Assembly: GCA_005879405.1 (NCBI GenBank)
Contig: VBKW01000189.1
Coordinates: 1-44,828, forward strand
Direction: 5' to 3'
DNA length: 44,828 nucleotides
DNA from: Deltaproteobacteria bacterium
GTDB lineage: Bacteria; Desulfobacterota; Binatia; UTPRO1
Below are positions 7,899 through 31,203 of this stretch, piece by piece. A model generated the notes under the pieces. The model had not been told where the DNA came from. It did no database searches and saw only the letters and a list, made by a program, of their open reading frames with translations. A program made the translations under genes and the position numbers. Position 1 is the first letter of the stretch. The number at the start of each line of letters is the position of its first letter.

Positions 7899-10339
7899 TC
7901 GGAGCGCCGATCTTCGTGTACCACGACGTCGTCGCTGGTCCCGAGGCGCTCGCCGGGGTCGCGCCGGCGCATCGGCCGTACGTGCTGACGCGCGCCCAAC
8001 TCTCCGCGCACCTGGAGGCGCTCGCTTCGGCCGACCTGGGCGATGCGCGGCCGACGGCGAGCACCATCACCGAGCTGCTCGACGACCCGATCGACGGCCG
8101 ATTCGTGCTGTCGTTCGACGACGGTCACGAGAGCGCGTACTCGCGAATCTTGCCGCTGCTCGCCGAGCGTCGCTGGCGCGCGACGTTCTTCGTCGTCGCC
8201 GGCTGGATCGGCGGGCGCGAGGCGCTCAGCTGGGCGCAGCTGCGTGCGTTGGCAGATGCGGGCATGGAGATCGGCAGCCATTCGCTCACGCATCCGTTCG
8301 TGCACGAGCTCTCCGCGGCGGACATTCGCCGCGAGTTCGGCGAGTCCAAGCGCATGCTCGAGGATGGAATCGGGCGCGCCGTCACGGTGGCGTCGCTACC
8401 GCGCGGCAGCAACGCGCCCGGAACCGATCGGATCGTCGCCGAGCTCGGCTACCGCGCGTTCTGCACCAGCGAGCCCGGCCTCGTCGGCCGCGGCACGGAC
8501 CCGTTCGACGCATCGCCTCACGCTCGCCAGGCTGCGCTCCTCGTATGTCGTGAAGCGCTTCGCGAAGGGCCTGATCGGAGTCGAGCGCTGGCGTCGCGTC
8601 CGTGGCGCGGTGATCGCGAGAACCGGCGCCGGCGGCGCGATCGTGAACGCGGCGCAGGTGAACGGTCGGTGGGAGAGCAGGCGATGAAGGTCCTCTTGAT
8701 CGGTCTCGACGGCATGACCTTCGACGTCGCGCGCCCGCTCATGGACGCCGGCAAGATGCCGACCCTCGCCGCGCTCGAGCGCCGCGGCGTGTGCGCGACG
8801 CTGCTGTCGACGTATCCGCCGATCTCCGCTCCGGCGTGGGTGACGTTCCTGACGGGCAACAATCCGGGACGTCACGGAATCTTCAATTTTCAGAACCTCG
8901 ATCTGTCACGCTACTCGAGTTTCAGCGAGACGCTGGTGAACTCGAGCTATTTCCGCGGCAAGACCCTGCTCGATCACGCCGGGGCGGAGGGAAAACGCAT
9001 CCTCGCGTATCGGATTCCGCTCACGTATCCGGCATGGTCGATCAACGGGCTGCTCGTCTCCGGGCCGCCGACGCCGGATCGCAAGCGCGCCTACGCGATG
9101 CCGGCCGAGCGCGCCGCCGAGCTGCCGGAGATGACGTTGCTGTCGCACGACGAGCTCGCCCGCGCCAAGAAGGCGGGCGACATTGCCGCGATCGACGCCT
9201 GCAACGCCTACGAGTTGAAGGTGATGGACGAGGTCACGCGCCGCGCGATCGACGACGGCACCGACGTGATCGTCACCTTCACCGGCATTCCCGATGGCCT
9301 GCATCATTCCTTCTGGCACCTGCACGATTCGAGCTCACCGCTGCACGATGTGTCGGCATCGGCGCACGACAAGGACGTCATCCGGCGTTGGTACTGCGAG
9401 ATCGATCGCATGATCGGCGGCTGGCTCGCCGGGCTCGGCGACGAGTGGGCGGTGATCGTGCTCTCCGATCATGGCGGTGGTCCGGCGCCGACGCGCTACC
9501 TGAACGTCAACCACGTGCTCGCGCAGCACGGGTATCTGAAGCCGACGAGCGCCGCGCGCGCGCGAGTCGCGAGGCTGGTCAGCCGGCAGATGAACGCGCT
9601 GCGCCGCCGCGTGCCCGGCAAGGTGTGGCTGAAGAACCATCTCCCCGCCGCCCTGAAGTCGCAGGTGCGCCAGCTGCGCAACGGCACCGGCCGGATCGAC
9701 TGGAGCGCGACACGCGCCTACGCCGTGCCGATCTTCTTCCCGGTGACCGGCATCAACCTCAACGTCCGGGGACGGCAGCCGCAGGGCACCGTCGCGCCGG
9801 GTGCGGAGTACGAGCGCGTCCGGGCGGAGATCATGAGGCTCGCGGCCGAACTTCGGGATTCGGCGAGCGGCGCGCCGCTCTGTCGGCAGGTGCTGCGCAA
9901 GGAGGACGTCCTCGCCGGACCGCACCTCGACAACGTGCCGGACATCCTCCTCGTCACCGCCGACGGAATCGACGGCGGACACGACGTCGATCGGCTGCTC
10001 GCGGACGTGCCGCTCGACGCGCTTCGCAACGTCAGCGGCTCGCACGCGATGGAAGGCATTTTCTTCGCCGTCGGAACCCCGTTCCGCGCCGGCGTCCGCC
10101 TCGCGCCGGTCGGTCTCGACGACATGCTCCCGACGGCGCTCCACCTCGCGGGCGTCGCCATTCCGGAGGGGATCGACGGCGCCGTGCTTGCCGAGGCGCT
10201 CGCGCCCGAGTACGCGGCGGTGCACCCCGTGCAGACGACGGGTATGCGCGCGGGCGGCGGCGAAGACGGCGACGCGCTCTCCGCCGGTGAAGAGCACGAG
10301 ATGCGGAAGTTCCTCCAAGACCTCGGGTACATCGAGTGA
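7895..10339 (+). CDS. as encoded, one ORF joining a NodB polysaccharide deacetylase domain (N-terminal) to AlkP/COG3379 paralog 2 (C-terminal); probably two genes joined by a 1-nt frameshift near 8510
   Basis: N-terminal part: FDDGHESAYSRILPLLAERRWRATFFVVAGW...MEIGSHSLTHP. C-terminal part, from ATG 8684: MKVLLIGLDGMTFD, STYPPISAPAWVTFLTGNNPGRHGIFNF, LSDHGGG, GSHAMEGIF, ending ...EEHEMRKFLQDLGYIE. The linker is Arg-rich junk-like sequence (RGDRENRRRRRDRERGAGER). Confidence 0.75.
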   Translation: MIGAPIFVYHDVVAGPEALAGVAPAHRPYVLTRAQLSAHLEALASADLGDARPTASTITELLDDPIDGRFVLSFDDGHESAYSRILPLLAERRWRATFFVVAGWIGGREALSWAQLRALADAGMEIGSHSLTHPFVHELSAADIRREFGESKRMLEDGIGRAVTVASLPRGSNAPGTDRIVAELGYRAFCTSEPGLVGRGTDPFDASPHARQAALLVCREALREGPDRSRALASRPWRGDRENRRRRRDRERGAGERSVGEQAMKVLLIGLDGMTFDVARPLMDAGKMPTLAALERRGVCATLLSTYPPISAPAWVTFLTGNNPGRHGIFNFQNLDLSRYSSFSETLVNSSYFRGKTLLDHAGAEGKRILAYRIPLTYPAWSINGLLVSGPPTPDRKRAYAMPAERAAELPEMTLLSHDELARAKKAGDIAAIDACNAYELKVMDEVTRRAIDDGTDVIVTFTGIPDGLHHSFWHLHDSSSPLHDVSASAHDKDVIRRWYCEIDRMIGGWLAGLGDEWAVIVLSDHGGGPAPTRYLNVNHVLAQHGYLKPTSAARARVARLVSRQMNALRRRVPGKVWLKNHLPAALKSQVRQLRNGTGRIDWSATRAYAVPIFFPVTGINLNVRGRQPQGTVAPGAEYERVRAEIMRLAAELRDSASGAPLCRQVLRKEDVLAGPHLDNVPDILLVTADGIDGGHDVDRLLADVPLDALRNVSGSHAMEGIFFAVGTPFRAGVRLAPVGLDDMLPTALHLAGVAIPEGIDGAVLAEALAPEYAAVHPVQTTGMRAGGGEDGDALSAGEEHEMRKFLQDLGYIE

Positions 10340-13386: not shown

Positions 13387-15279
13387 ATGAGCTTGCAGAG
13401 CCACGTCGGCGTTCCCGTGAACGCGCGCCCACTCGCAACGGCCAGCCCGCCCGCCGCGGCAAAGGTCGAATGGGAGCTCGTCACGGTCGGGGGCGCCACC
13501 CCGATCTGGCAGCGCGTGCTCTCGGTCATCGGGCTCGTGCTGCTATCGCCGCTGATTCTGCTCATCGGGCTCGCGACGAAATCGACGAGCCCGGGGCCGA
13601 TTCTCTACCGCGGTCGGCGCGTCGGTCGCGGTGGCAAGAACTTCACGATCTACAAGTTTCGCACGCTCGAAGTCGGCGCCGAGCAGAAGATCGGCGCGCG
13701 CCTGCTCGAGCACGGTGACGGACTGTACACGCGCATCGGCCGCTACTTGAAACGCGCCAAGCTGGACGAGATCCCGCAGCTGTTCAACGTCATTCGCGGC
13801 GAGATGAACCTCACGGGGCCGCGGCCGGTTCGACCGATTTTCCTCGAGACGTTCTGCCGCGAGATCCCCGGCTACATGCGCCGCTTCGCGGTCAACCCGG
13901 GCATGACGGGGCTCGCGCAGGTGCGCGGCGGCTACTTCACCCACCCGCGGGACAAGCTCCGCTACGATCTCCTCTACATCCGCAACCGCTCGTGGTGGCT
14001 GGACGTCCGTCTGGTGACCTTGACCTTCATCAAGGTGCTGAACCGGTGGGCGACGCTCGGGCTCGTGCTGACGTTGCTGTTCCTGTCCGCTGCGTTGCTT
14101 CCCGGAGTTTTCCACTATCCTTTCCAGCTCGACCTCGGCAGTTTCAAGCTGAGCCCGTTCGAGATGCTGGTCGCGGTGATGGCTGCATGGCTCGTGGTGC
14201 AGCGCTCGCCGCGTGACGAGCTCTGCGTCTACGACACCGCGGTCAACCGGCCGATGGGTGTCTTCGTCGGCTTCGCGGGCTTGGCGGCGCTCTTCTCTCC
14301 CGAGCCGACGGCGGCGCTGCAGGGCGTCTCGTACTACGTCGCGACCGGCTTCTCGCTGACGTTCCTGATCGTCAACGCGCGGCTCACGCAGCGCGAGGCG
14401 AATCTGGTCGCGAACGTCGTCGGGCTATCGGCGGTCTCGGTATGCCTGATCGGTCTCCTCCAGATCGGTCTCGACAACCAGCTCGGGGTGCACGACGCGC
14501 CGCGAATGTCGTCGACGCTCGGCAATCCCGTGCTGCTGGCGACGTACCTCGTCCTCGGACTGCCCTTCCTGCTGACGCAGCTGCTCCACAGCCGCTCGCG
14601 CGAGCAGCGCGACATCTGGGTGGGGTGCGCGACGATCGCGCTGATCGGCGTGTTCCTCACCCACACCCGCATGGGGCTCGTCGCCTTGGTCGTCACGTTG
14701 AGCGTATTCCTCTGGAAGACCTCGCATCGCTACATCGGCATCTGCGCGGTGGCGTTGATGATGGTGATGGGGGTCATGCTCGCGGGCCGGCAGATGCGCC
14801 TCTCGGTTCCCGAGGTGGCCGTGGAAGCCGCGCGGCGCGGGGAGATCGCGGAGCACGTGCTGTCGGCACCGCCCACCCAGCTGCTGCTCGGCGTCGGCAG
14901 CACGCGCCGGCTCGCGATGTCGCCGATTCCGGAGCAGGACGCGCGCTGGATCTCGACCAGCATGCACCTGACGCTCATCCGCCAGAACGGCATCGTCGGC
15001 TGGGCGCTGATGCTGTGGATCTTCACGGCGGCGCTGATCGCGCTCTACCGCGGGTACGGGCGCATCCACGATCCGCACATGCGCCGCATCGTGTGGGCGA
15101 TCTTCAGCTCGCTCGTCGGATTTCTCATCTCGATGACGGACGCCAACGTCTTCTTCAACGTCACGATCCAAATCTACGTCTGGGGTATGATCGGCGTCGG
15201 GATCGGGATCATCACCCACTTGAGCGGCCGCCGGCCGACGTTTCACGTCGTCTGGCGTTTCGGGGAGCACGGGGATTGA
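13387..15279 (+). CDS. fusion protein: bacterial sugar transferase (initiating polyprenyl-phosphate glycosyl-1-phosphate transferase) + Wzy_C/O-antigen-ligase-like polytopic domain
   Basis: N-terminal ~215 aa: SPGPILYRGRRVGRGGKNFTIYKFRTL, DEIPQLFNVIRGEMNLTGPRP, GMTGLAQV, DLLYIRNRSWWLDVRL. The C-terminal ~400 aa has about 10 TM segments, including FLTHTRMGLVALVVTLSVFLW. Confidence 0.8.
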   Translation: MSLQSHVGVPVNARPLATASPPAAAKVEWELVTVGGATPIWQRVLSVIGLVLLSPLILLIGLATKSTSPGPILYRGRRVGRGGKNFTIYKFRTLEVGAEQKIGARLLEHGDGLYTRIGRYLKRAKLDEIPQLFNVIRGEMNLTGPRPVRPIFLETFCREIPGYMRRFAVNPGMTGLAQVRGGYFTHPRDKLRYDLLYIRNRSWWLDVRLVTLTFIKVLNRWATLGLVLTLLFLSAALLPGVFHYPFQLDLGSFKLSPFEMLVAVMAAWLVVQRSPRDELCVYDTAVNRPMGVFVGFAGLAALFSPEPTAALQGVSYYVATGFSLTFLIVNARLTQREANLVANVVGLSAVSVCLIGLLQIGLDNQLGVHDAPRMSSTLGNPVLLATYLVLGLPFLLTQLLHSRSREQRDIWVGCATIALIGVFLTHTRMGLVALVVTLSVFLWKTSHRYIGICAVALMMVMGVMLAGRQMRLSVPEVAVEAARRGEIAEHVLSAPPTQLLLGVGSTRRLAMSPIPEQDARWISTSMHLTLIRQNGIVGWALMLWIFTAALIALYRGYGRIHDPHMRRIVWAIFSSLVGFLISMTDANVFFNVTIQIYVWGMIGVGIGIITHLSGRRPTFHVVWRFGEHGD

Positions 15280-17324
15280 GCGTTTCCAGAACCGGGCAGG
15301 GGCTCCTACGTAACGCCCTCGTCGGTCTCGTCGCGGGAGTCGCGGCGGGTGCCGCGTGGTGGCTCGTCGAGTCGACGGCGAACTGGGCATTCGGCGGCGT
15401 CGTGACGGGCGCGGTCGCGCGCATGATCCTCGGCCTCGATCTCCTCGTCGCGGGCAGCGCCGGTCTCGCGCTCGGCGTCGCGTTGACGTTCGTCCCGGGC
15501 GGCGCGAGCGCGCCGGCGCTCGCGCTCGGCCTCGCGATGGTCTACGGGCTGATCCGCATCTTCGAGCCTCCCGGGATGGGGGCCGAAGCGCTGTTCGTCG
15601 TCTGCGCCATCGCGAGCGCCGCGCTCGGCGTCCGGCTCGTCGGCCAGGACCGGCGTGGCCCACTCGCATTCGTGCACGTGACGCTGCTCGCGACCGCGTT
15701 CACGGCCCTCGGCAAGACGGTCATCGGGGAGGCGCAGAGCGACTATTTCAGCAAGACGGAGCCGAGCGCTGCGGCGCTCACGCTTCTCCTGGTAGCGCTG
15801 CCACTCGCCGCGATCGTCGTCGATCGTGTCGTCGCGTTCGCGCTCCGACGGCACGTCTGGCGCTTCGGTGCCGAGCTCGCGCTCGGCGCGGCGGCGGCGG
15901 TGCTGTGGAACCACTCGAGCCCGCCGCTGTGGACGGCACCGATCGACAATCCCCGTCTCACCGCGCCGCCGCCGGCGGTGGGGGTGCCGGACGTGCTCTT
16001 GGTCGTGCTCGACACCACGCGCGCCGACCACATGTCGACGTACGGCTACGCGCGCGAGACCTCGCCGAACCTGACGGCGCTCGCGAGCGACGCGCTCAAC
16101 TTCACGCAAGCACGCTCGCCGGCGCAATGGACCGTGCCGGGACACGCCTCGATCTTCACGGGCATGTATCCCACGCGTCACGGCGCCCACTACGCCGGCG
16201 AATGGGCGGCGGGACCGAAGATCTACGGACGCAAGCGCGTGCTGCCGCTGTCGGACGAGCGGACGACGCTCGCCGAGGTGCTGCGCGACCGCGGCTATGT
16301 CACCGGCGGTTTCGCCGCGAATTTCGCGAACCTGGATCGTGGCTTCGGCATGGCGCAAGGCTTCGGGCACTACGAGGATCATCCGGGGCTGCTCTTCCGG
16401 CCGGTGCCGCACGTGGTGCGCTTCGTCCAGCGGTTCCGACCCGCGTTCTGTAAGAAGCCGTTTCGCAGCGCAGAGGAGATCAACACCGCTGCGCTCGATT
16501 GGCTCGACGGGGCGCCCGCCGGTCGTCCCTTCTTCGTGTTCCTCAATTACCTCGAGCCTCATCATTGGCTCGCCGCTCCGCCGTACGACCTGTGGAGCCG
16601 TGACCTGCCGCATGCGCGCCAGCTCGCGCTGAAGGGGCTGTTCACCCACAAGGTGCCGGTGCATCTCACCGACGAGGAGCGGACGTTCGTCGCCGCGAAC
16701 TACGACGGCCAGATCCTCGCCATGGACGCGGCGCTCGGCGAGCTGATCGCGGCGCTGAAGGCCCGGGGCCGCTACGAGAATACGTTGATCATCGTCACCG
16801 CCGACCATGGCGAGCTCCTCGGTGAGCACGAGATCGTGGGTCACGGCGGTCGAATGATGTACGAGGGCCTGCTCCACATTCCGATGGTCGTGAAGCTGCC
16901 AGGCGCCGACCACCCGAAAGGCACGATCGACGCGCGCGTGCAGCTCGTCGACGTCCTTCCGACCGTGCTCACGACGGTCGGCGCGCCGTTGCCCGACGGC
17001 GTGCAGGGCGAGCCCGTGCAGCACGTCACGCACGAGACGATCGCGGAGGAGCACATCAATCCCGAGTTCGTCGCCCAGTTCGGCGCAGTCTACGATCGCG
17101 CGCTCCGCGTCTACTACGATGGTGCGTACAAGCTGATCAGCACCTCGCGCGGCGAGCGCCTGCTCTTCGACCTCGGACAGGACCCGGGCGAGGCCGAGAA
17201 CCTGGCGAGCCGCGAGCCGGAGCGGGTCGCGGACATGGAGCGGCGGCTCGACACCGTGATGAGCCACATGGACCTGCCGACCGGCGGCGGCACCAAGATC
17301 GCCGCGTCATCGGAGCCGCGATGA
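15276..17324 (+). CDS. membrane-anchored sulfatase-fold hydrolase/transferase (LtaS/OpgB/EptA-like architecture)
   Basis: About 5 N-terminal TM helices, then PDVLLVVLDTTRADHMS and ARSPAQWTVPGHASIFTGMYPTRHG, where Thr/His occupy the usual C/S-x-P-x-R positions, then TADHGELLGEH. The start is uncertain: TTG 15276 overlaps the upstream TGA, and ATG 15421 is the alternative. Confidence 0.75.
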   Translation: MSVSRTGQGLLRNALVGLVAGVAAGAAWWLVESTANWAFGGVVTGAVARMILGLDLLVAGSAGLALGVALTFVPGGASAPALALGLAMVYGLIRIFEPPGMGAEALFVVCAIASAALGVRLVGQDRRGPLAFVHVTLLATAFTALGKTVIGEAQSDYFSKTEPSAAALTLLLVALPLAAIVVDRVVAFALRRHVWRFGAELALGAAAAVLWNHSSPPLWTAPIDNPRLTAPPPAVGVPDVLLVVLDTTRADHMSTYGYARETSPNLTALASDALNFTQARSPAQWTVPGHASIFTGMYPTRHGAHYAGEWAAGPKIYGRKRVLPLSDERTTLAEVLRDRGYVTGGFAANFANLDRGFGMAQGFGHYEDHPGLLFRPVPHVVRFVQRFRPAFCKKPFRSAEEINTAALDWLDGAPAGRPFFVFLNYLEPHHWLAAPPYDLWSRDLPHARQLALKGLFTHKVPVHLTDEERTFVAANYDGQILAMDAALGELIAALKARGRYENTLIIVTADHGELLGEHEIVGHGGRMMYEGLLHIPMVVKLPGADHPKGTIDARVQLVDVLPTVLTTVGAPLPDGVQGEPVQHVTHETIAEEHINPEFVAQFGAVYDRALRVYYDGAYKLISTSRGERLLFDLGQDPGEAENLASREPERVADMERRLDTVMSHMDLPTGGGTKIAASSEPR

Positions 17325-18383: not shown

Positions 18384-19685
18384 ATGGGCTACCTGGATTA
18401 CCTGCGTCACGGGAAGAACGTGGTGTGGAAGAAGAACGCCATGCCCGTGTACATGGTGTACTTCATCACCGATGCCTGCAACGCGAAGTGCAAGCATTGT
18501 CTCCTCGCCGACGGCGCGCATCCCGGATGGGAGACGCCGACGATGGAGTTCAAGCGCAAGGAGCTCTCGCTCGAGGAGATCGATAAGATCACCGCGAGCA
18601 TGGGGAAGAGCCTCATGTTTCTCCTCCCCACCGGCGGCGAGCCGTTCCTGCGCAAGGACATCGGCGAGATCGTCAAGATCTTCTACAAGAACACTGGCGT
18701 GCGGAACGTCGGCATCCCGACGAACGGCAGCACGCCGGCGCGCACGCTGAAGATCGTCGAGGACGTGCTGAAGTCGTGCCCCGATCTCGATTTCGGCATC
18801 GACGTCTCGCTCGACGGCATCGGAGCGCTCCACGACGAGATCCGCGTCTTCCCGGGTCTGTTCGAGCGCTCGATCGCGACGTACCGGGAGCTGAAGAAGC
18901 TCTCGAAGCACTATCCGAAGCTCAACGTCAACGTCGAGACGACGGTGTCGTCGCACAACGACAAGCACCTCCTCGAGAATTACGAGTACTTCCGCCGCGA
19001 GCTGCAGGTCGACAACGTCTTCACGCTGCTGACGCGCGGGTCGCCGAAGGAGTCGATCGCGAAGTTCTTCGACGTGAAGCGCTACGAGCAGTACGCCGAG
19101 GTCATCGAGAAGGACATGAAGAGCGGCGCGCTCTCGGGGTACGACACGTTTCCGTTCGCCGACTTCATCAACGCGAAGCGCATCGTCCGGCACCGCCTCA
19201 TCGCCGAGATCGCGAAGACCAACACGTACCAGATCCCGTGCTACGCTGGGAGCCTCGGCGCCTGCATGTTCGCGAACGGCGACATCTATCCGTGCGAGCT
19301 CCTGATCGACCGCAAGCTCGGGAACGTCCGCGAGAACGGCTACGACTTCAAGAAGATCTGGTACGGCAAGAAGGCCGACGAAGCGCGCAAGTTCATCCGC
19401 GACACGAAGTGCTTCTGCACCTACGAGTGCTTCCTGACCGTCAACATCCTCTTCAACCCGCGCATGATGCCGAAGATCCTGAAGGAGTGGGGCAGCTTGA
19501 AGGTGCGGAAGATGATGCGAAAGCTCGGCGGCGCGCGGCCCGTGGAGTCGGCGGTGACGGCATACGCCGCGAACGGCGACGGACATGCGTGCATGAACGG
19601 CGCGATCCAGGCACACAATGCGCAGCTCCTGAACGGCGGCGAGGCCAACGGCTCGGCGAAGCCGGCCGACGAAGCTCACGTCTGA
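18384..19685 (+). CDS. radical SAM enzyme with SPASM/twitch-type auxiliary Cys domain
   Basis: FITDACNAKCKHC (CxxxCxxC), PTGGEPFLRKDI, IPTNGS, and C-terminal IPCYAGSLGACMFANGDIYPCE...TKCFCTYEC. GAGGAGGA lies upstream of ATG 18384. The protein is Lys-rich and the gene is visibly less GC-rich than its neighbours. Confidence 0.85.
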   Translation: MGYLDYLRHGKNVVWKKNAMPVYMVYFITDACNAKCKHCLLADGAHPGWETPTMEFKRKELSLEEIDKITASMGKSLMFLLPTGGEPFLRKDIGEIVKIFYKNTGVRNVGIPTNGSTPARTLKIVEDVLKSCPDLDFGIDVSLDGIGALHDEIRVFPGLFERSIATYRELKKLSKHYPKLNVNVETTVSSHNDKHLLENYEYFRRELQVDNVFTLLTRGSPKESIAKFFDVKRYEQYAEVIEKDMKSGALSGYDTFPFADFINAKRIVRHRLIAEIAKTNTYQIPCYAGSLGACMFANGDIYPCELLIDRKLGNVRENGYDFKKIWYGKKADEARKFIRDTKCFCTYECFLTVNILFNPRMMPKILKEWGSLKVRKMMRKLGGARPVESAVTAYAANGDGHACMNGAIQAHNAQLLNGGEANGSAKPADEAHV

Positions 19686-23807: not shown

Positions 23808-25138
23808 AGGCACGCGGCAGCGGCAAGTTCGCGCTCGACTCGATTCAGATCTTCGGGGGCCAGATCGCGATGGTGGCGGTCGGCATCGTGAACGGCGTCA
23901 TCATGGCGCGGTGGCTCGGCGCGAGCGGGCGGGGGACCTTGCAGATCCTCATGCTCATGCCGCTCGTGCTGGCCAACTTCGTGAAGCTCGGCATCCCGCA
24001 GGCGAGCGTCTACTACATGCGGCGGCGCGGCGCGTCCGCGGCGGACGTCGCGTCGAACTCGATCTGGATCGCCTGCGTGACCGGCGGGCTCGCGGTCGGC
24101 GTGTGCTGGATGTGGCGCGACTGGCTTCTCGCCCGCTTCCTCAAGCAGGCGCCGCCGGAGCTGCTTCTCCCGTCGCTCTGTCTGATCCCGTTCATGCTGC
24201 TGCAGTTCTACCTGCTCGGCGTCGCGCAGGCGCAGCAACGGTTTCGCGAGTACAACCTCCGGCAGATCGCGCCGAACGTCCTCAGCCTCTTCGGGTTGAT
24301 CGTCACGCTGGTCGTGCTCCACATGGGCGTCGCGGGCGCGGTATGGGTCCAAGTCGCGATTCAGGTGCTGATGACCGTGTGGATGGTCGTGCGCGTGCAC
24401 CGCGAGGCGCATCTGCACCTCCGCTGGACGGGGGCGCTCGCGCGCGGAATGCTCGCGTTCGGCCGCAAGTCGTACGTGCAGACGCTCGCCGCGACCCTGC
24501 ATCTGCGCATCGACCAGTTCATGTGCGCCTACTTCCTCATGCCCGCGGACGTCGGGTTGTACGCGGTCGCGGTCAATCTCGGCGGCCTCCTCGACAAGAT
24601 CGCGGACGCGGTCGGAACCGTGATGTTCCCGCGGCTCGCCGGCCTTGGCGATAGCGAAGCGCACGCCGCGACGACCCGGGTATGCCGCCACACCCTCTTC
24701 GTCCTCGCACTCGGCGCCGCGGGGCTCGCGCTCATCGCACCCCAGCTGCCGCGGATCTACGGCCGTGACTACCCGGGCATGGTCGTCCCGCTCCTCGTCC
24801 TCCTTCCTGGGATGCTTCCATCCGGTTTGTATCAGCTGCTGACGCGATACTTCACGAGCCGCGCGCGACAGGAGGTCAACATCGCGGCGGCGGGCATCGC
24901 GGTCGTGCTCAACGTGGCGCTCAACTGGGTGCTGATCCCGCGCTACGGGATCCTCGGCGCGGCGCTCGCGAACGGCGTCTCCTACGGCACGGCGGCCGTC
25001 GTGCTGCTGGTCGCGTTCGTGCGCGAGTCGGGGCTCTCGGTGTCCGAGACGCTCGTGCCGCGAGCGACGGAGATCAGCGACATGGTGCACAGGGCCCGGG
25101 GCGTCGTCGCGAAGCTCACGGGCGGCCGCGCGGCATAG
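23804..25138 (+). CDS. Wzx-type oligosaccharide flippase (MOP superfamily polysaccharide biosynthesis protein)
   Basis: About 12-14 TM segments. C-terminal part reads NVALNWVLIPRYGILGAALANGVSY. ATGA overlap with the upstream gene. Confidence 0.8.
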   Translation: MKARGSGKFALDSIQIFGGQIAMVAVGIVNGVIMARWLGASGRGTLQILMLMPLVLANFVKLGIPQASVYYMRRRGASAADVASNSIWIACVTGGLAVGVCWMWRDWLLARFLKQAPPELLLPSLCLIPFMLLQFYLLGVAQAQQRFREYNLRQIAPNVLSLFGLIVTLVVLHMGVAGAVWVQVAIQVLMTVWMVVRVHREAHLHLRWTGALARGMLAFGRKSYVQTLAATLHLRIDQFMCAYFLMPADVGLYAVAVNLGGLLDKIADAVGTVMFPRLAGLGDSEAHAATTRVCRHTLFVLALGAAGLALIAPQLPRIYGRDYPGMVVPLLVLLPGMLPSGLYQLLTRYFTSRARQEVNIAAAGIAVVLNVALNWVLIPRYGILGAALANGVSYGTAAVVLLVAFVRESGLSVSETLVPRATEISDMVHRARGVVAKLTGGRAA

Positions 25139-25258
25139 CGCGGCGAAATCCGACGTTGCGGCGGTGGACGAAACCATTTATCGTCGCGATAGCTCCGCAG
25201 AAACCGCATCGGGTGACGCGACGGGAATCCTCTTCCGTCGAATCCATCAATCGGAGGA

Positions 25259-26659
25259 TTGTTTCCGTTGACGCAGAAGGTCCTGGTCGTCGGCCTCGAC
25301 TCGGCGCCGCCGCGATTGCTGTTCGACGTCTATCGACGCGAGATGCCGACGTTGACGCGGCTCATCGACCGCGGCGCGCACGGCCGCCTGCAGAGCACGA
25401 ACCCGCCGATCACGGTGCCGGCGTGGACGTCGATGATGTCGAGCAAGGATCCGGGCCAGCTCGGGTTCTACGGCTTCCGCAATCGGAAAGACCACTCGTA
25501 CGACGGCTACGCGTTCGCGAACTCCGCGCTCGTCCGCGAACGGCGCCTGTGGGACCTCCTCGGCGAGGCCGGCAAGCGCTCGATCGTGCTCGGCGTGCCG
25601 CAGACGTATCCGCCGCGGCCGCTGAACGGCGAGATGGTGACCTGCTTCCTCACGCCGTCGACGAAGGCGCAGTACACGTATCCGGAGACGTTGAAGGCCG
25701 AGGTCGAGCGCGTCGCTGACGGCTACGTCCTCGACGTCGACGACTTCCGCACGCCGCACAAGAAGGAGTTGCTCGAGCGCGTCTACGCGAAGACGCGCAA
25801 GCACTGGGCGGTCGCGAAGCACATGATGGCGAGCCGCGAGTGGGATTACTTCATGCTGGTCGAGATGGGCCTCGACCGCATCCACCACGGGTTCTGGAGC
25901 TACATGGACCCCGAGCACCGGAAGTACGAGCGCGGCAACGAGTTCGAGCAGGCGATCCGCGACTACTATCGCTACCTCGACGGCGAGCTGGCGAGCTTGC
26001 TCGCGCTGGCGCCGCAGGACGCGCTGGTTCTCGTCGTCTCCGACCACGGCTCGAAGCGAATGGAGGGCGGCATCTGCTTCAACGAGTGGCTGATCCGCGA
26101 AGGCTATCTGACGCTCAAAGATCCGCCGCGGACGCCGACGCCGATCGGCAAGGTCGCGATCGACTGGTCGCGCACGAAGGCGTGGGGCGACGGCGGCTAC
26201 TACGGGCGCTGCTTCATGAACGTGAAGGGCCGCGAGCCCGAAGGTATCGTGGACCCGAAGGACTACGAGCGGGTGCGCAACGAGTTGATCGCCGGGATCG
26301 AGGCGATCGTCGACGACCGCGGCCGCTCGATCGGCTCGAAAGCCTATCGCCCCGAGGACATTTATCGGTCGGTGAACGGCGTCGCGCCCGATCTCATCGT
26401 CTATTTCGGTGATCTCGATTGGCGCTCGGTCGGCGCCGTCGGCATGGACTCGATCTACACGTTCGAGAACGACACCGGGCCCGACGAGGCGAACCACGAC
26501 TGGTACGGCATCTTCGTGATGTCGTCGCCGAATGGCTCGGTGCCGCTCCAAGGGAACCTCGGCGACGTCTCGATCTACGACGTCGCGCCGACGCTGCTCA
26601 CGTACTTCGGCTTGCCGGTCCCGGCGGACATGATCGGCCGCTCGCTCGTGAGGAACTGA
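25259..26659 (+). CDS. AlkP-superfamily (COG3379-like) paralog 3, tail-less
   Basis: VLVVGLDSAPP, STNPPITVPAWTSMMSSKDPGQLGFYGF, VVSDHGSKRM, ANHDWYGIF. Ends ...PVPADMIGRSLVRN with no linker/LGY tail. TTG 25268 is better spaced from GGAGGA than TTG 25259. Confidence 0.8.
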   Translation: MFPLTQKVLVVGLDSAPPRLLFDVYRREMPTLTRLIDRGAHGRLQSTNPPITVPAWTSMMSSKDPGQLGFYGFRNRKDHSYDGYAFANSALVRERRLWDLLGEAGKRSIVLGVPQTYPPRPLNGEMVTCFLTPSTKAQYTYPETLKAEVERVADGYVLDVDDFRTPHKKELLERVYAKTRKHWAVAKHMMASREWDYFMLVEMGLDRIHHGFWSYMDPEHRKYERGNEFEQAIRDYYRYLDGELASLLALAPQDALVLVVSDHGSKRMEGGICFNEWLIREGYLTLKDPPRTPTPIGKVAIDWSRTKAWGDGGYYGRCFMNVKGREPEGIVDPKDYERVRNELIAGIEAIVDDRGRSIGSKAYRPEDIYRSVNGVAPDLIVYFGDLDWRSVGAVGMDSIYTFENDTGPDEANHDWYGIFVMSSPNGSVPLQGNLGDVSIYDVAPTLLTYFGLPVPADMIGRSLVRN

Positions 26660-26669
26660 GGAGGCTCGC

Positions 26670-27629
26670 GTGCGGCACGTTGCGGTCGACATCGTCACCG
26701 GCTTCCTCGGCAGCGGCAAGACGACGCTGCTCAGCCACGTGCTCGCGCACGGCCTGAAGGGCAAACCCGTCGCGGTCGTGATGAACGAGATCGGCGAGGT
26801 CGGAATCGACGGCCAGGTCGTGACCGGCCTCAACTACGTCGAGAAGATGGTCGAGCTCTCGAGCGGCTGCATCTGCTGCTCGATCGACGAGTACCGCTTC
26901 GACCTCGCGATCCAGGAGCTGATCGAGACCGTCCACCCGCACCTCATCATCATCGAGTCGACGGGGCTCGCCGATCCGGAGCCCCTCACGTACCGCGTGA
27001 AGGCCGCAGGTCTGAAACTCGATGCGGTGATCACGGTCGTCGACGCCGCCAACGTCGAGCGCTTCGTCAAGGAGACCGAGGTCGCGACGGCGCAGATCGA
27101 GGCGGCGGACTTCCTGGTCGTCAACAAGATCGACCTCGTCGCGACGGGCGACGTCGCGCGCGTCGAACGCCGGCTGCGCAAGCTGAACCCGCGTGCGCTG
27201 CAGTTCCGCAGCGTCCGCGGCGCCATCGACTCCGAGGTGCTGTTCGCGACCGGCGTCGCGACGTACCGCGAGCGCGCCCGCGAGGCGCGCGCGACGTCCG
27301 ATCACCTGCACCAGGACGCCTTCGGCTCGTTCCTCTACCGCAGCGACGTCGAGCTCGATCAGCCGGCGTTCGAGCACGTGCTCGAGCGTCTGCCCGACGA
27401 CGTGATTCGCGCCAAGGGCATTGTGCGTCTCGTCGGACGCGATTGGCATTGTCTCTTCAACGTCACCTGCGGTCGCGTGGAGCTCGGTTGGCTGAAGCTC
27501 CCGGAGGATCGCACGGAAAACCAGGCCGTCTTCATCGGCCGCAATCTCGACCGGCATCGCGCCGGCATCCTCGATGCGCTCCGCGGCTCCGAGCGCGCGC
27601 AGGCACAACGACAGGGAGAAGTTCGATGA
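26670..27629 (+). CDS. COG0523 (CobW/YjiA/ZigA-type) G3E-family GTPase metallochaperone
   Basis: GFLGSGKTTLL (P-loop), SSGCICCS (CxCC metal motif), ESTGLADP, VNKIDL, plus a C-terminal CobW_C-like domain. Confidence 0.9.
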   Translation: MRHVAVDIVTGFLGSGKTTLLSHVLAHGLKGKPVAVVMNEIGEVGIDGQVVTGLNYVEKMVELSSGCICCSIDEYRFDLAIQELIETVHPHLIIIESTGLADPEPLTYRVKAAGLKLDAVITVVDAANVERFVKETEVATAQIEAADFLVVNKIDLVATGDVARVERRLRKLNPRALQFRSVRGAIDSEVLFATGVATYRERAREARATSDHLHQDAFGSFLYRSDVELDQPAFEHVLERLPDDVIRAKGIVRLVGRDWHCLFNVTCGRVELGWLKLPEDRTENQAVFIGRNLDRHRAGILDALRGSERAQAQRQGEVR

Positions 27630-27754
27630 CGGCGACCCCCAAACGGCCGGAAGATCCGGCCGAGCCACCGCCCAACCCCGACGCGACCGAGGGCTACTCG
27701 CCCGAGGAAGAAGAGGAAGTCCAGAAGCGCCTCGAGGATTTGGGCTACATCTGA
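27626..27754 (+). CDS. unannotated 42-codon ORF encoding a free Pro/acidic linker plus LGYI tail
   Basis: ATG 27626 overlaps the CobW stop (ATGA) and GGGAGAA lies upstream. Encodes MTATPKRPEDPAEPPPNPDATEGYSPEEEEEVQKRLEDLGYI. It is the in-frame 3' part of track ORF 27443..27754. Confidence 0.55.
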   Translation: MTATPKRPEDPAEPPPNPDATEGYSPEEEEEVQKRLEDLGYI

Positions 27755-27880
27755 GCACCACGCTCGCGTATCCTCCCCGGAGAACGCGCGCGGATCACAT
27801 CAGGCGCGGGCTTCGTCCCGCTCCCCACTCGCAGCCCGTCCCCACGGCGGGCGTCACCTTCCCACTCTCGGAGGACGTCC

Positions 27881-29176
27881 ATGGAGATCCTGGACAAGAT
27901 TCGTGAACGCAAGGCCCGGACGGGCGTGATCGGACTCGGCTATGTCGGGCTGCCGCTCGCCATCGAGTTCGCGCACGCCGGCTTCCACGCCGTCGGCATC
28001 GACGTCGACACGCGCAAGGTGGACGCCATCAACGCCGGCCAGTCGTACATCGTCGACACGAGCAACGAGGAGGTCGCGTCGCTGGTTGCGGCAGGACGCC
28101 TGCATGCGACGACCGATTTCGCGGCGATCGAGGATCTCGACACGATCAACATTTGCGTGCCGACGCCGCTCCGCAAGACCAAAGACCCCGACATGACCTA
28201 CGTCGTGGCGGCGGTGAGCGAGATCAAGAAGCACCTCCGCGCCGGCCAGCTGATCATCCTCGAGTCGACGACGTACCCCGGTACGACCGAGGAGCTGGTC
28301 CTGCCGCAGCTCGAGGAATCGGGGCTGAAGGTCGGCCGCGACTTCTTCCTCGCGTTCTCCCCGGAGCGCATCGATCCCGGCAACAAGCAGTTCAACACCC
28401 GGAACATCCCGAAGGTCGTCGGCGGTGTGACGGCGCGCTGCACGCAGGTCGCGAAGACGCTCTACGAGCAGAGCATCGAGACCGTCGTGCCGGTGTCGTC
28501 GACGCGCGTCGCCGAGATGGTGAAGCTCCTCGAGAACACGTTCCGCAGCGTCAACATCGGGTTGGTGAACGAGCTCGCGCTCATGTCGGCGAAGCTCAAC
28601 ATCAACGTGTGGGAGGTGATCGACGCCGCGGCGACGAAGCCCTTCGGCTTCATGCCGTTCTACCCGGGACCGGGCCTCGGCGGGCACTGCATCCCGATCG
28701 ACCCGTTCTACCTCGGGTGGAAAGCGCGCATGAACGGGTTCGAGCCGCGCTTCATCGAGCTCGCCGGGCAAGTGAACGAGTCGATGCCGAAGTTCGTCGT
28801 CGACAAGGTCACGGACGCGCTGAACGACGACGGCAAGGCGGTGCGCAACTCGCGCATCCACGTCCTCGGCGTCGCCTACAAGCGCGACGTCAACGACATC
28901 CGCGAGAGCCCGTCGCTGCACGTCATCAAGATGCTGATCGACCGCGGCGCGAGGATCAGCTACAGCGACCCGTTCGTGCCGGAGATTCGCGAGGACGGGA
29001 TAGAGCTCACGTCCGTCCCGGTTCGCGAGACCCTCGAAGCCGGTACCGATTGCGTGGTATTGCTGACTGACCACAGCGGCTTCAACTATTCCGAGATCGT
29101 GCACCTGGCACCGCTGATCGTCGATACGCGGAACGCGCTCCGCGACTTCATCGGCGGCAACATCGTCCGGCTGTAG
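27881..29176 (+). CDS. nucleotide-sugar 6-dehydrogenase (UDP-GlcNAc/UDP-ManNAc dehydrogenase type, WbpA/TviB/WecC-like)
   Basis: GVIGLGYVGLPLAIEFA (Rossmann fold), GPGLGGHCIPIDP (catalytic Cys), VLGVAYKRDVNDIRESP. Confidence 0.9.
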   Translation: MEILDKIRERKARTGVIGLGYVGLPLAIEFAHAGFHAVGIDVDTRKVDAINAGQSYIVDTSNEEVASLVAAGRLHATTDFAAIEDLDTINICVPTPLRKTKDPDMTYVVAAVSEIKKHLRAGQLIILESTTYPGTTEELVLPQLEESGLKVGRDFFLAFSPERIDPGNKQFNTRNIPKVVGGVTARCTQVAKTLYEQSIETVVPVSSTRVAEMVKLLENTFRSVNIGLVNELALMSAKLNINVWEVIDAAATKPFGFMPFYPGPGLGGHCIPIDPFYLGWKARMNGFEPRFIELAGQVNESMPKFVVDKVTDALNDDGKAVRNSRIHVLGVAYKRDVNDIRESPSLHVIKMLIDRGARISYSDPFVPEIREDGIELTSVPVRETLEAGTDCVVLLTDHSGFNYSEIVHLAPLIVDTRNALRDFIGGNIVRL

Positions 29177-29455: not shown

Positions 29456-29496
29456 CGTGCCGCGCGCGCTCGGCTACGTGAACTAATCGGCGCTGC

Positions 29497-31203
29497 GTGA
29501 TCGCGATCGTCGGCCTCGATGGAGCGACGTGGGATCTCGCCCGCCCGCTCATGGACGCCGGCGAGATGCCGACGCTGCGGCGCCTCGTCGACGCCGGCGC
29601 GTCCGGGGTCCTGCGGTCGACGACGCCGCCCGTGACGTTTCCCGCGTGGTCGTCGTTCATGACCGGCGCCAACCCCGGCAAGCACGGCATCTTCGACTTC
29701 ACACGCCGGGTGCCCGGCACGTACGAGCTGGCGTTCGTCACGAGCCGCGACCGCCGCCTGCCGACGATGTGGCGGCTGCTATCCGACGCCGGACGGCGCG
29801 TCGCCGTCCTCGGCGTGCCGACCACGTACCCGCCGGAGCCGGTGAACGGCATCATGGTCGGCGGCTTCGACAGCCCGGTCACGACCGGGATCGACGGCTC
29901 GTTCGTCCACCCGCGCGCGCTCTACGACGAGATGCGGGCGGCGGTCGGGCCGTACACGATCACCGACTTCCAGGAGCTGCGCATCGGACCTGGCTGGCAC
30001 GACGCGGCGCTGCCGAAGATCCTCGCCGCGGTCGATCGTAAGCGCGACCTGGGGCGCTGGGTCCTCGCCCGCGAGGCGTGGGACGTCTTCATGGTGCTCT
30101 TCGGCGAGGCCGACACCGCGAGCCACCACTTCTGGATGTTCGCGGATCCGCGCTCGCCGCGCTTCGACGGCGCGCGCGCTTCCCGTCACCGCAATGCGCT
30201 CCGCGACGTCTACCGCCGCCTGGATGCGGCGTTGGCGGCGATCGTCGGCGCGCTGCCAGGCGACGCGACCGTGCTCGTCGCCTCCGATCACGGGTTCGGC
30301 GGCGCCGGCACGACCGTCGTCCACTTGAACCGCTGGCTCGCCGAGCGCGGCCTGCTGCGCTTTCACGCGGGGGCGCGCGCGGTTCCGGCGCGCATCGTTC
30401 GCGGCGCACGCGGCCTGGCGCTGCGCGCGCTGCCGCGCCGCGCCCAGGAGCGCGCCGTCCGGCGGCGCGGCCGCGGCCTCGCGCGCCGGCTCGAAGCGTG
30501 GTCACGGTTCGGCGCGATCGATCTGGCACGGACGGCCGTCTTCTCCGAGGAGCTCAACTACGCGCCGAGCATCTGGCTGAACGTGCGCGGCCGCGATCCG
30601 CTCGGCACCGTCGCGCCCGGGCGCGATTACGAGGCGCTGATCGAACGCCTGCGCGCCGATCTCCTCGCGTGGCGGCATCCGGTGAGCGGCGCGCGCATTG
30701 TCGCCGCCGTCCATCGCCGCGACGAGATCTACACCGGCGGCTGCGTGGACGGCGCCCCCGACCTCCTCCTCGAGCCCGCGCTCGAGAACGGCTACTCGTA
30801 CGTGTGGCTGCCGAGCACCGGCGACGAGCGCGCGAGCCTGCGCCCGCTCGCACCGGTGGAGTACGTCGCCGGGAAAGGCGGTGGCATGAACGGCAGCCAT
30901 CGCGCGGACGGGCTCTGGGCGCTTGCGGGCCCGGCGGTGCCGCGAGGGATGCGCGCCGCGGCCTCGATCACCGACGTCGCGCCGACCGTGCTGCATCTCG
31001 CCGGCCTTCCGGTGCCGTCGTGGATGGACGGGCGGGTGATTCCCGGCGTGGCCGGCGAGATCGTCACTGCGGCTGCCGAGAGCGGCAACACACCGACGCT
31101 CGCGACTTTCACCGGCGAGCCGTCTGCACGCACTGCCGGCGAGGAGGACGAGCTCTGGCGGCGGCTCGTCGCGCTCGGCTACCTCGAGGGAGCGGAGCGG
31201 TGA
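29497..31203 (+). CDS. AlkP-superfamily (COG3379-like) paralog 4
   Basis: IAIVGLDGATWD, STTPPVTFPAWSSFMTGANPGKHGIFDF, VASDHGFGG, GSHRADGLW. Ends ...GEEDELWRRLVALGYLEGAER. Confidence 0.8.
   Translation: MIAIVGLDGATWDLARPLMDAGEMPTLRRLVDAGASGVLRSTTPPVTFPAWSSFMTGANPGKHGIFDFTRRVPGTYELAFVTSRDRRLPTMWRLLSDAGRRVAVLGVPTTYPPEPVNGIMVGGFDSPVTTGIDGSFVHPRALYDEMRAAVGPYTITDFQELRIGPGWHDAALPKILAAVDRKRDLGRWVLAREAWDVFMVLFGEADTASHHFWMFADPRSPRFDGARASRHRNALRDVYRRLDAALAAIVGALPGDATVLVASDHGFGGAGTTVVHLNRWLAERGLLRFHAGARAVPARIVRGARGLALRALPRRAQERAVRRRGRGLARRLEAWSRFGAIDLARTAVFSEELNYAPSIWLNVRGRDPLGTVAPGRDYEALIERLRADLLAWRHPVSGARIVAAVHRRDEIYTGGCVDGAPDLLLEPALENGYSYVWLPSTGDERASLRPLAPVEYVAGKGGGMNGSHRADGLWALAGPAVPRGMRAAASITDVAPTVLHLAGLPVPSWMDGRVIPGVAGEIVTAAAESGNTPTLATFTGEPSARTAGEEDELWRRLVALGYLEGAER

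Follow-up and report, generated by a model that had tools for sequence, protein, structure and literature searches.

Very few clients are known for bacterial COG0523 GTPases. In ZNG1-METAP1, the chaperone binds a zinc-finger domain of its client through an N-terminal CPxLxP motif that is absent from the bacterial homologues. Here we describe a locus in which a COG0523 GTPase gene stands between the gene for a putative metalloenzyme and a micro open reading frame (micro-ORF) of 42 amino acids (aa). It lies on contig VBKW01000189.1 of a Deltaproteobacteria bacterium (Binatia). The whole stretch of DNA analysed, hereafter the window, is 44.8 kb long, has a GC content of 69% and forms one long exopolysaccharide locus. 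Four paralogous alkaline phosphatase (AlkP) superfamily enzymes, designated P1 to P4, are encoded in it. P1, P2 and P4 end in a C-terminal tail containing Leu-Gly-Tyr (the LGY tail). P3 has no such tail, and the micro-ORF found behind P3 and the GTPase encodes a free peptide resembling one.

The locus shares with ZNG1-METAP1 the pairing of a COG0523 GTPase with a binuclear metalloenzyme and a short peptide as the proposed docking element, but here that peptide has a gene of its own and is related to the tails of clients. Moreover, the GTPase has no N-terminal CPxLxP-like motif and P3 has no zinc-finger domain. Tight, conserved synteny of a CxCC GTPase with a metalloenzyme is also seen for CobW with CobN and for Nha3 with Fe-type nitrile hydratase. 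However, COG3379 AlkP-fold enzymes lie outside the described clients, the GTPase matches no curated equivalog and metal transfer is in this case presumed. The tail itself can be compared with tethered C-terminal interaction peptides such as the C-terminal tip of SSB, the C-terminal peptide of FtsZ and the EEVD tail of Hsp70/Hsp90. The likeness consists of a short conserved acidic C-terminal motif, hydrophobic end residues, a poorly conserved disordered linker and a lack of packing on the protein's own domain (AlphaFold2 predicted local distance difference test, pLDDT, 40-76). The sequences are nevertheless unrelated, and the module described here additionally forms a gene by itself and is attached to proteins of several unrelated families. 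What follows LGY[ILVM] varies, and the free carboxylate is therefore probably not what is recognised.

Two further comparisons concern the free peptide. As in microProteins and split genes, a 42-aa product corresponds to the linker and tail of larger homologues, fused and split orthologues coexist, and the small gene has its own Shine-Dalgarno (SD) sequence and ATG and is under purifying selection. All of these sequence features, including homology to a terminal segment, were found, but the gene described here belongs to a bacterial operon and is coupled in translation to the gene before it, and for this lineage fission is only one of two possible origins. The acyl carrier protein (ACP) and LysW likewise represent small acidic modules that occur on several enzymes of one pathway as well as stand-alone, with recurrent fusion and fission. 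The LGY module, however, is a single helix instead of a folded domain, with no known prosthetic group or attachment chemistry.

A small gene behind P3 and its GTPase

Coordinates of all features are collected in Table 1. P3 (463 aa if the start favoured by gene callers, 9 nt later, is used) ends in ...PVPADMIGRSLVRN*, directly behind the last conserved AlkP block, and P1, P2 and P4 extend 40-60 residues beyond this point. The Pfam match, together with the putative metal-ligand and Thr-nucleophile columns (D8, T42, D206, H210, D264, H265 and H468 in P4 numbering), which are invariant in the four paralogs, places all of them in the AlkP superfamily (Phosphodiest/NPP-like, PF01663/COG3379). Phosphodiest is the sole Pfam domain of P3. 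A search for a solved structure closely related to P3 by sequence found none; the best structural matches of a P4 model were phosphonoacetate hydrolase and NPP.

The GTPase gene starts 10 nt past the P3 stop, with GGAGG upstream of the start. Its translation contains GFLGSGKTT, GCICCS, ESTGLADP and NKIDL and a CobW_C domain, as expected of COG0523/G3E, and begins with MRHVAVDIVTGFLGSGKTT, so that the G-domain is present from the outset with no N-terminal extension. Against the equivalog models it scored below the cut-offs for YjiA (PRK11537, 134.5 vs 361 bits), CobW (TIGR02475, 131.2 vs 332 bits) and ZigA (NF038288, 126 vs 600 bits). The helix after the NKID motif (DLVATGDVARVERRLRKLNP, residues ~143-173) is superficially like the tail sequence EVQKRLEDLGY, and the two were aligned together by MAFFT; this likeness probably reflects a generic helix-plus-cap pattern. 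A preliminary description of this stretch had already recorded the missing tail of P3, the four GTPase motifs, the overlap of GTPase and micro-ORF as ATGA (27626-27629) with an SD sequence upstream, and the LGY[IL] ends of the three other paralogs, and each of these was recovered here.

The arrangement extends well beyond the window. Scanning genomes with the GTPase and metagenomes with an alignment of P3-type proteins yielded approximately 100 loci. The GTPase comes behind every P3-type gene of at least 70% identity for which enough downstream sequence is available, and of 46 loci, 43 have a distance of -1 to 22 nt between P3 stop and GTPase start. The micro-ORF is present in most loci with P3-type genes of this identity and is syntenic behind the GTPase in ~30 distinct loci. 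A single 263-aa metagenome protein (P0176) has the orthologous GTPase G-domain fused in frame to the peptide, with CobW_C absent; it is known from one contig and is probably a deletion variant or an assembly artefact.

Gene callers predicted the exact micro-ORF product on 22 public contigs, and 47 more free homologues, 39-51 aa long, came from a word-indexed search. Free peptides are known from at least two phyla and 47+ clusters. An alignment of 48 free peptides revealed that Y24, E29, V32 and R35-L-E-D-L-G-Y41 are invariant and that the N-terminal half is variable. Among the syntenic loci the core is encoded with four Val, four Arg, three Leu and three Gly codons and zero amino-acid change. 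Over the 19-codon core, the Nei-Gojobori method (NG86) applied to 31 distinct DNA versions gave pS 0.60, pN 0.10 and a dN/dS of ~0.09, a ratio that carries an ascertainment caveat in that the core versions were collected by motif. Synonymous sites are saturated, and constraint by an RNA element or promoter is therefore excluded. The translation signals are conserved as well: ATG and a purine-rich SD sequence 7-10 nt upstream were present in 28/28 distinct versions, and the gene before the micro-ORF either overlaps the ATG at its 3′ end or stops ≤8 nt from it. Synteny and purifying selection had been put forward as checks on the micro-ORF, and at the level of sequence comparison both establish it as a genuine coding gene under purifying selection.

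Two other readings of the small gene were rejected. A programmed frameshift joining GTPase and peptide is unneeded, since SD and ATG are kept in all versions. A precursor of a ribosomally synthesised and post-translationally modified peptide, prompted by the radical-SAM/SPASM gene of the window, is unlikely; the conserved part of the peptide is a tail common to enzymes of 500 aa, and the radical-SAM/SPASM gene lies two genes past a sulfatase-family gene, an arrangement like that of an anaerobic sulfatase-maturating enzyme (anSME).

The tail module and its carriers

When the peptide was compared with the whole window by tblastn, the P2 tail was the top non-self match (E 0.001), with the P4 and P1 tails within the ten best non-self matches. 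A profile of the 48 peptides was then run against 1.84 billion representative proteins (threshold E≤1e-3). It returned 113 matches, 112 of which run to the last or penultimate residues of their proteins; the one exception is a repeat protein with 8 internal matches. Moreover, the tail (...Y[ST]x6[VI]xxRLxxLGYxx) ends 115 of the 120 best homologues of a tail-free paralog-body query, almost all of them P4-type, and occurs in 0/120 GTPase homologues. The proposal that the micro-ORF encodes a linker and tail holds: by these alignments the peptide is demonstrably homologous to the linkers and tails of the paralogs.

The consensus of the module is Y-[ST]-x-E-E-E-x-x-[VI]-x-[KR]-R-L-x-[DE]-L-G-Y-[ILVM]. 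A disordered Pro/acidic linker leads into what reads as a single amphipathic helix, capped N-terminally by S/T-x-x-E and C-terminally by L-G-Y. Conservation falls on the hydrophobic face (V, L, L, Y) and on one Arg, whereas the acidic run is frequent without being universal. Its carriers are free peptides of 31-60 aa from high- and low-GC organisms alike; COG3379 enzymes, both full-length and fragmentary (P0183, P0230, P0241, P0247, P0256, P0259, P0261 and many C-terminal fragments); adenosine 5′-phosphosulfate (APS) kinases and degenerate APS-kinase-like domains of 100-185 aa; ribbon-helix-helix (RHH)/CopG-like proteins of 65-107 aa; and a family of 212-259 aa (the 222-aa family) that has no Pfam match. 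The cluster names of the matches gave no hint of function beyond 'AlkP superfamily' and 'Arc/MetJ RHH'.

No Pfam or NCBIfam model covers the module. The micro-ORF peptide itself matched no family of Pfam-A or NCBIfam at E≤10, and other peptides and tails gave sub-threshold matches to PG_binding_2 and other families. A peptidoglycan-binding identity was rejected: the PG_binding matches are below cut-off and cover one helix (helix 1), and the enzymes have no signal peptides. A literature search with the tail motif as a string returned only noise, and the literature on COG3379 yielded nothing related.

An AlkP-superfamily gene adjoins the module in 9 of the 10 distinct arrangements examined, the window's own included, and by this measure of gene order the module is genomically linked to AlkP-superfamily genes. 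In three loci (L076, L122, L123) the free peptide directly follows a P3-type body with no GTPase; this body is 66% identical to P3 and ends in ..ILPGG*, its last codons form the SD sequence and the peptide starts 4-7 nt further on. A separate P3-type lineage (L124) has body and peptide joined by an ATGA overlap. Elsewhere, an RHH-like protein with the tail is encoded 50 nt behind a 469-aa Phosphodiest gene (L132/L133), a 130-aa protein with the tail is encoded between a P3-type gene and another COG3379 gene (L134), and a tail-bearing member of the 222-aa family is encoded 3 nt behind two sulfatase genes (L130). Tail-bearing APS kinases (CysC) directly follow tail-less P3-type genes in L098, L111 and L116, and also in L091. 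Lastly, a free peptide is paired with an RHH-like gene bearing the tail in a COG3379/sulfatase/PAPS_reduct cluster (L125, L126).

Two of these associations extend further. At least 12 metagenome loci have APS kinase genes beside tail-less P3-type genes, and in four of them the kinase carries the same tail (the other loci of this set are L086, L087, L089, L099, L106, L110, L120 and L078). The recurrence of APS kinases as neighbours suggests a sulfation-related role for these uncharacterised COG3379 enzymes, with the P3-type enzymes working in the pathway of 3′-phosphoadenosine 5′-phosphosulfate (PAPS) and sulfation. Small RHH/CopG-like proteins (65-100 aa) with the same tail adjoin free peptides or directly follow tail-less COG3379 genes, so that the tail of the enzymes is also found on a transcription-factor-like domain.

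Within the P3 type itself, the body occurs with a fused canonical tail (P0259/L041, P0271, L092, L108), beside a free peptide without GTPase (the four loci above) and in the order body, GTPase, peptide (the window and ~30 loci). P3-type genes being both fused and split, body and tail are interchangeable as one or two genes, and the comparison of loci establishes that fusion and fission have been repeated.

Function and origin of the free peptide

The reading we favour, to which we give about an even chance, is that the free peptide is an in-trans copy, for the P3 lineage, of a C-terminal interaction helix of the AlkP superfamily. The module would belong to COG3379/Phosphodiest- and sulfatase-type enzymes, being either fused to them or encoded on a small protein or micro-ORF right beside them, and in the P3 lineage it would be made in trans. 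P3, GTPase and peptide form one tightly coupled unit. Owing to the 10-nt gap between P3 and GTPase and the ATGA overlap between GTPase and peptide, the peptide would be made in proportion to both upstream proteins. It could then supply P3, or the multi-enzyme polysaccharide/sulfation machinery of P3, with the helix that P1, P2 and P4 hold in cis. Its partner in trans would be a protein, either an enzyme oligomer or a partner common to the tail-bearing proteins of the pathway. That split forms have been kept and translationally coupled in several independent lineages suggests that the helix works without a covalent link. The peptide would not be a GTPase-specific docking tag, its link to the GTPase being one of co-expression, and the GTPase would most simply be, by synteny, a metal-insertion factor for P3.

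Several observations weigh against this reading. AlphaFold2 modelled the body of P4 with confidence (121-sequence alignment, pLDDT ~95, predicted template modelling score 0.91), but the linker and tail had a pLDDT of 40-49, with a helix predicted at 547-559 that is undocked; in P0247, which has a canonical acidic tail, the tail helix reached a pLDDT of 60-76. The models therefore give no confident cis docking, although weak contacts may still occur, and simple binding of the tail to its own body is disfavoured. Most GTPase-free P3-type enzymes have neither a tail nor a nearby peptide; P3-type genes of 56-66% identity have no GTPase, ~38 of them being tail-less and two (L092, L108) being fused to the canonical tail. 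Even within the GTPase-linked clade the peptide is absent or decayed in at least 5 separate places of the tree with P3 and GTPase retained (the L019-L021/L026 group, L043, L048/L049, L059/L060 and L061/L062), and it is therefore dispensable. Decay is visible, with P3 and GTPase intact, in L048/L049 (MVERAP...) and L061/L062 (MAERRRDAPAPPAPEPADGAAYSDDWETLPEE); L017, which is outside the tree, also has no peptide. Conversely, L022 and L023 keep GTPase and peptide with no P3 upstream, so that the peptide is linked no less to the GTPase than to P3. In L039/L040, the one arrangement of the ten without an AlkP-type neighbour, a free peptide follows a lipoyl synthase gene and the contig contains no AlkP gene.

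The origin of the split bears on the same question. The preliminary description had proposed gene fission, with the GTPase gene lying between body and tail. The split-gene relationship holds, as fused and body-peptide forms both exist, but insertion of the GTPase between the two is just one history among those possible: the closest P3-type relatives without a GTPase are almost all tail-less and sister to the GTPase-linked clade in a neighbour-joining (NJ) tree, and GTPase and peptide occur without P3. In this tree, a rough distance tree without support values, the GTPase-linked P3 genes form a single clade in which the peptide is ancestral; L076 falls within this clade or next to it, and the sister group is tail-less. 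A tail-less P3 ancestor may instead have acquired a ready-made GTPase-peptide cassette, the peptide deriving from the tail of another carrier. We regard this as quite possible, if somewhat short of an even chance, and fission in situ and gain of a cassette in the P3 lineage as about equally likely, which again tells against our preferred view. The tail-less state of the sister group and of most outgroups fits the gain of a cassette, as do the evident mobility of the module between protein families and the persistence of GTPase and peptide without P3 even in another phylum. However, P3-type fused and split forms are known from several lineages, the peptide is missing from L024 and L025, whose GTPases are more distantly related, and the tree is rough. 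The other phylum is represented by a metagenome-assembled genome (MAG) of Limnocylindria (Chloroflexota) with an otherwise similar locus (L023), which suggests that the locus has been transferred between phyla.

Among the functional alternatives, the one that survives best, though we consider it unlikely, is that the free peptide, instead of serving P3, acts as a decoy in the manner of a microProtein, competing with the tails of P1, P2, P4 and other proteins for a common partner and so tuning assembly or regulation. Tail-bearing proteins do co-occur with the free peptide, both in the window and in L011-L014, which encode a 626-aa sulfatase-family protein with the tail, and RHH-like proteins with the tail are encoded beside free peptides in L125, L126 and L135. 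A detached interaction motif would be unable to recruit its body of origin, and the tail is undocked in cis in the AlphaFold2 models. On the other hand, tight translational coupling to an upstream enzyme or GTPase in independent split lineages fits a stoichiometric partner better; in addition, no regulated promoter was found in 25000-28000. A more ambitious proposal, which we rate as distinctly unlikely, is that AlkP-superfamily enzymes have in the LGY tail an accessory module of their own that has so far gone unrecognised. It would be either a subunit or handle acting in trans, needed when the GTPase assists in their metalation and activation, or a swinging carrier arm of a sulfation/polysaccharide pathway. 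P3, COG0523 GTPase and peptide would then be a three-component system defining a new class of bacterial COG0523 client.

The preliminary description had offered the acidic LGY tail as the element by which the COG0523 GTPase recognises its clients; in such a model the free peptide would dock on the GTPase as a handle, regulator or competitor during metalation. The peptide is indeed translationally coupled to the GTPase in every one of the ~30 distinct loci, the two persist together in L022 and L023, AlkP-fold enzymes are binuclear metalloenzymes with conserved ligand columns and, with so few bacterial COG0523 clients known, a new recognition mode is conceivable. However, the tail is far more widespread than the GTPase. 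It is carried by nearly all P4-type homologues, by CysC kinases, by RHH-like proteins and by free peptides with no adjacent GTPase, body-peptide pairs exist without any GTPase, and the motif was found in none of the 120 GTPase homologues. Moreover, at least five lineages retain P3 and GTPase after losing the peptide, and P3, the presumed client by synteny, is the sole paralog without a tail. The appeal to ZNG1-METAP1 does not help, as the polarity of docking is opposite there and neither the N-terminal motif nor the zinc finger is present here. We therefore hold docking to the GTPase to be improbable; the tail phenomenon is more general than the preliminary description held, and mechanistically less GTPase-specific.

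Very improbable, in our view, is a swinging carrier or substrate arm, working equally well fused or free, on which a phosphoryl, sulfuryl or glycosyl group would be passed between the enzymes of the pathway by transient attachment to the conserved Tyr (or Ser/Thr). Carrier modules typically have a flexible linker, recur on several enzymes of the same pathway and are repeatedly fused and split off, as is the case here, the association with APS kinases and AlkP/sulfatase-fold transferase-type enzymes would suit such chemistry, and the LGY Tyr is invariant. This idea is, however, purely inferential. Many tails, those of P1, P2, P4 and the L011 sulfatase-family protein among them, lack the first Tyr and the acidic run, and the conserved residues are mostly at hydrophobic helix-face positions, as in a binding helix. 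Finally, that the micro-ORF is a chance open frame, of which 69% GC yields many, or a non-functional leftover, as its decay in some lineages might imply, is extremely improbable and already refuted by conservation as far as sequence analysis can go, given an invariant core despite saturating synonymous change, a conserved SD and ATG, and a spread over ≥2 phyla and 47+ free-peptide clusters.

The surrounding locus and its implications

The window opens with genes for a Wza-type export protein, a Wzz/GNVR chain-length protein, a Wzy_C polymerase and a GT4 glycosyltransferase. These are followed by P1, P2, a second deacetylase, an AsnB-type amidotransferase and a Bac_transf priming transferase, and then by a sulfatase-family protein, a GT2 glycosyltransferase, a radical-SAM/SPASM enzyme, another GT2, YdjM, ICMT, a PMT_2-like protein and a flippase. 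P3, the GTPase and the micro-ORF come next, with UDP-glucose dehydrogenase, an 88-aa ORF, P4, a GT4 and PdxA behind them. Contigs identical or near-identical to the window come from soil metagenomes, and the closest genomes are Candidatus Binatia MAGs. A promoter and terminator scan of window positions 25000-28000 gave nothing useful.

Table 1. Positions of the features discussed, in the window unless another locus is named.
Feature	Position	Strand	Description
ORF of 267 aa	2779-3582		directly after the Wzz/GNVR gene
P1	6219-7898		Phosphodiest E 1.3e-37; C-terminus ...LGYL
P1 tail	7830-7898	+	..DQDRRAIEGMLEGLGYL*
P2	7895-10339		polysaccharide deacetylase+AlkP fusion; Phosphodiest E 9.7e-34; C-terminus ...LGYIE
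P2 tail	10268-10339	+	..SAGEEHEMRKFLQDLGYIE*; best in-window match to peptide
Sulfatase-family protein	15276-17324		
Radical-SAM/SPASM enzyme	18384-19685		two genes downstream of the sulfatase-family gene
P3	25259-26659	+	tail-less COG3379/Phosphodiest (alkaline-phosphatase-fold) enzyme, 466 aa; PF01663, E 1.4e-43
COG0523/G3E GTPase	26670-27629	+	Pfam cobW 2e-46 and CobW_C 3.1e-14; CxCC motif
GTPase helix after NKID	27095-27190		tail-like segment
SD of micro-ORF	27613-27619	+	AGGGAGA, within last GTPase codons (..RQGEVR*)
Micro-ORF	27626-27754	+	42-aa free linker+tail peptide MTATPKRPEDPAEPPPNPDATEGYSPEEEEEVQKRLEDLGYI
Conserved core of micro-ORF	27695-27751	+	YSPEEEEEVQKRLEDLGYI; S-x-x-E N-cap, amphipathic helix, L-G-Y C-cap
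ORF of 88 aa	29189-29455		after UDP-glucose dehydrogenase
3′ gene remnant	29456-29486	+	..RALGYVN*; 31 nt between 88-aa gene and P4; aligns with 3′ end of 626-aa gene of L011/L012
P4	29497-31203		Phosphodiest E 9e-41; C-terminus ...LGYLEGAER
P4 tail	31120-31203	+	..EEDELWRRLVALGYLEGAER*
GTPase+peptide, no P3 upstream	L022:5001-6063		
GTPase+peptide, no P3 upstream	L023:5001-6072		
APS kinase+tail	L098:5387-6028		
APS kinase+tail	L111:5400-6017		
APS kinase+tail	L116:2011-2679		
APS kinase+tail	L091:1752-2504		
RHH-like+tail	L125:3694-4117		
RHH-like+tail	L126:486-931		
RHH-like+tail	L135:1527-1867		
RHH-like+tail	L132:2880-3092		
RHH-like+tail	L132:5401-5703		

A closer inspection of the region upstream of P4 revealed a gene remnant that ends in an LGY tail. 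At this position L011-L014 carry a ~626-aa membrane sulfatase-family gene with such a tail, and judging from the alignment the window has lost this tail-bearing gene by deletion. The 88-aa ORF that precedes the remnant keeps its position after UDP-glucose dehydrogenase in all related Binatia-type loci, with or without the micro-ORF, and has no match in Pfam or NCBIfam. Further upstream, the sulfatase-family protein and the radical-SAM/SPASM enzyme, both inside the polysaccharide locus, resemble a sulfatase with its anaerobic maturase. The 267-aa ORF has no Pfam match at E≤1e-3 and occupies the position at which a tyrosine-kinase partner is expected in such loci.

The free peptides constitute a new family of small proteins of 40-50 residues with unusually clean coding evidence, tied to a module that has no curated family model. 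Polysaccharide and sulfation clusters encode hundreds of carriers of this module, which are AlkP-fold enzymes, APS kinases and small RHH-like proteins. Moreover, the natural series of fused tails, tails split off beside the enzyme and tails split off with a GTPase gene between makes the function of the tail directly testable in trans, and the tightly conserved pair of P3 and COG0523 GTPase is a candidate for a new bacterial COG0523 client relationship.

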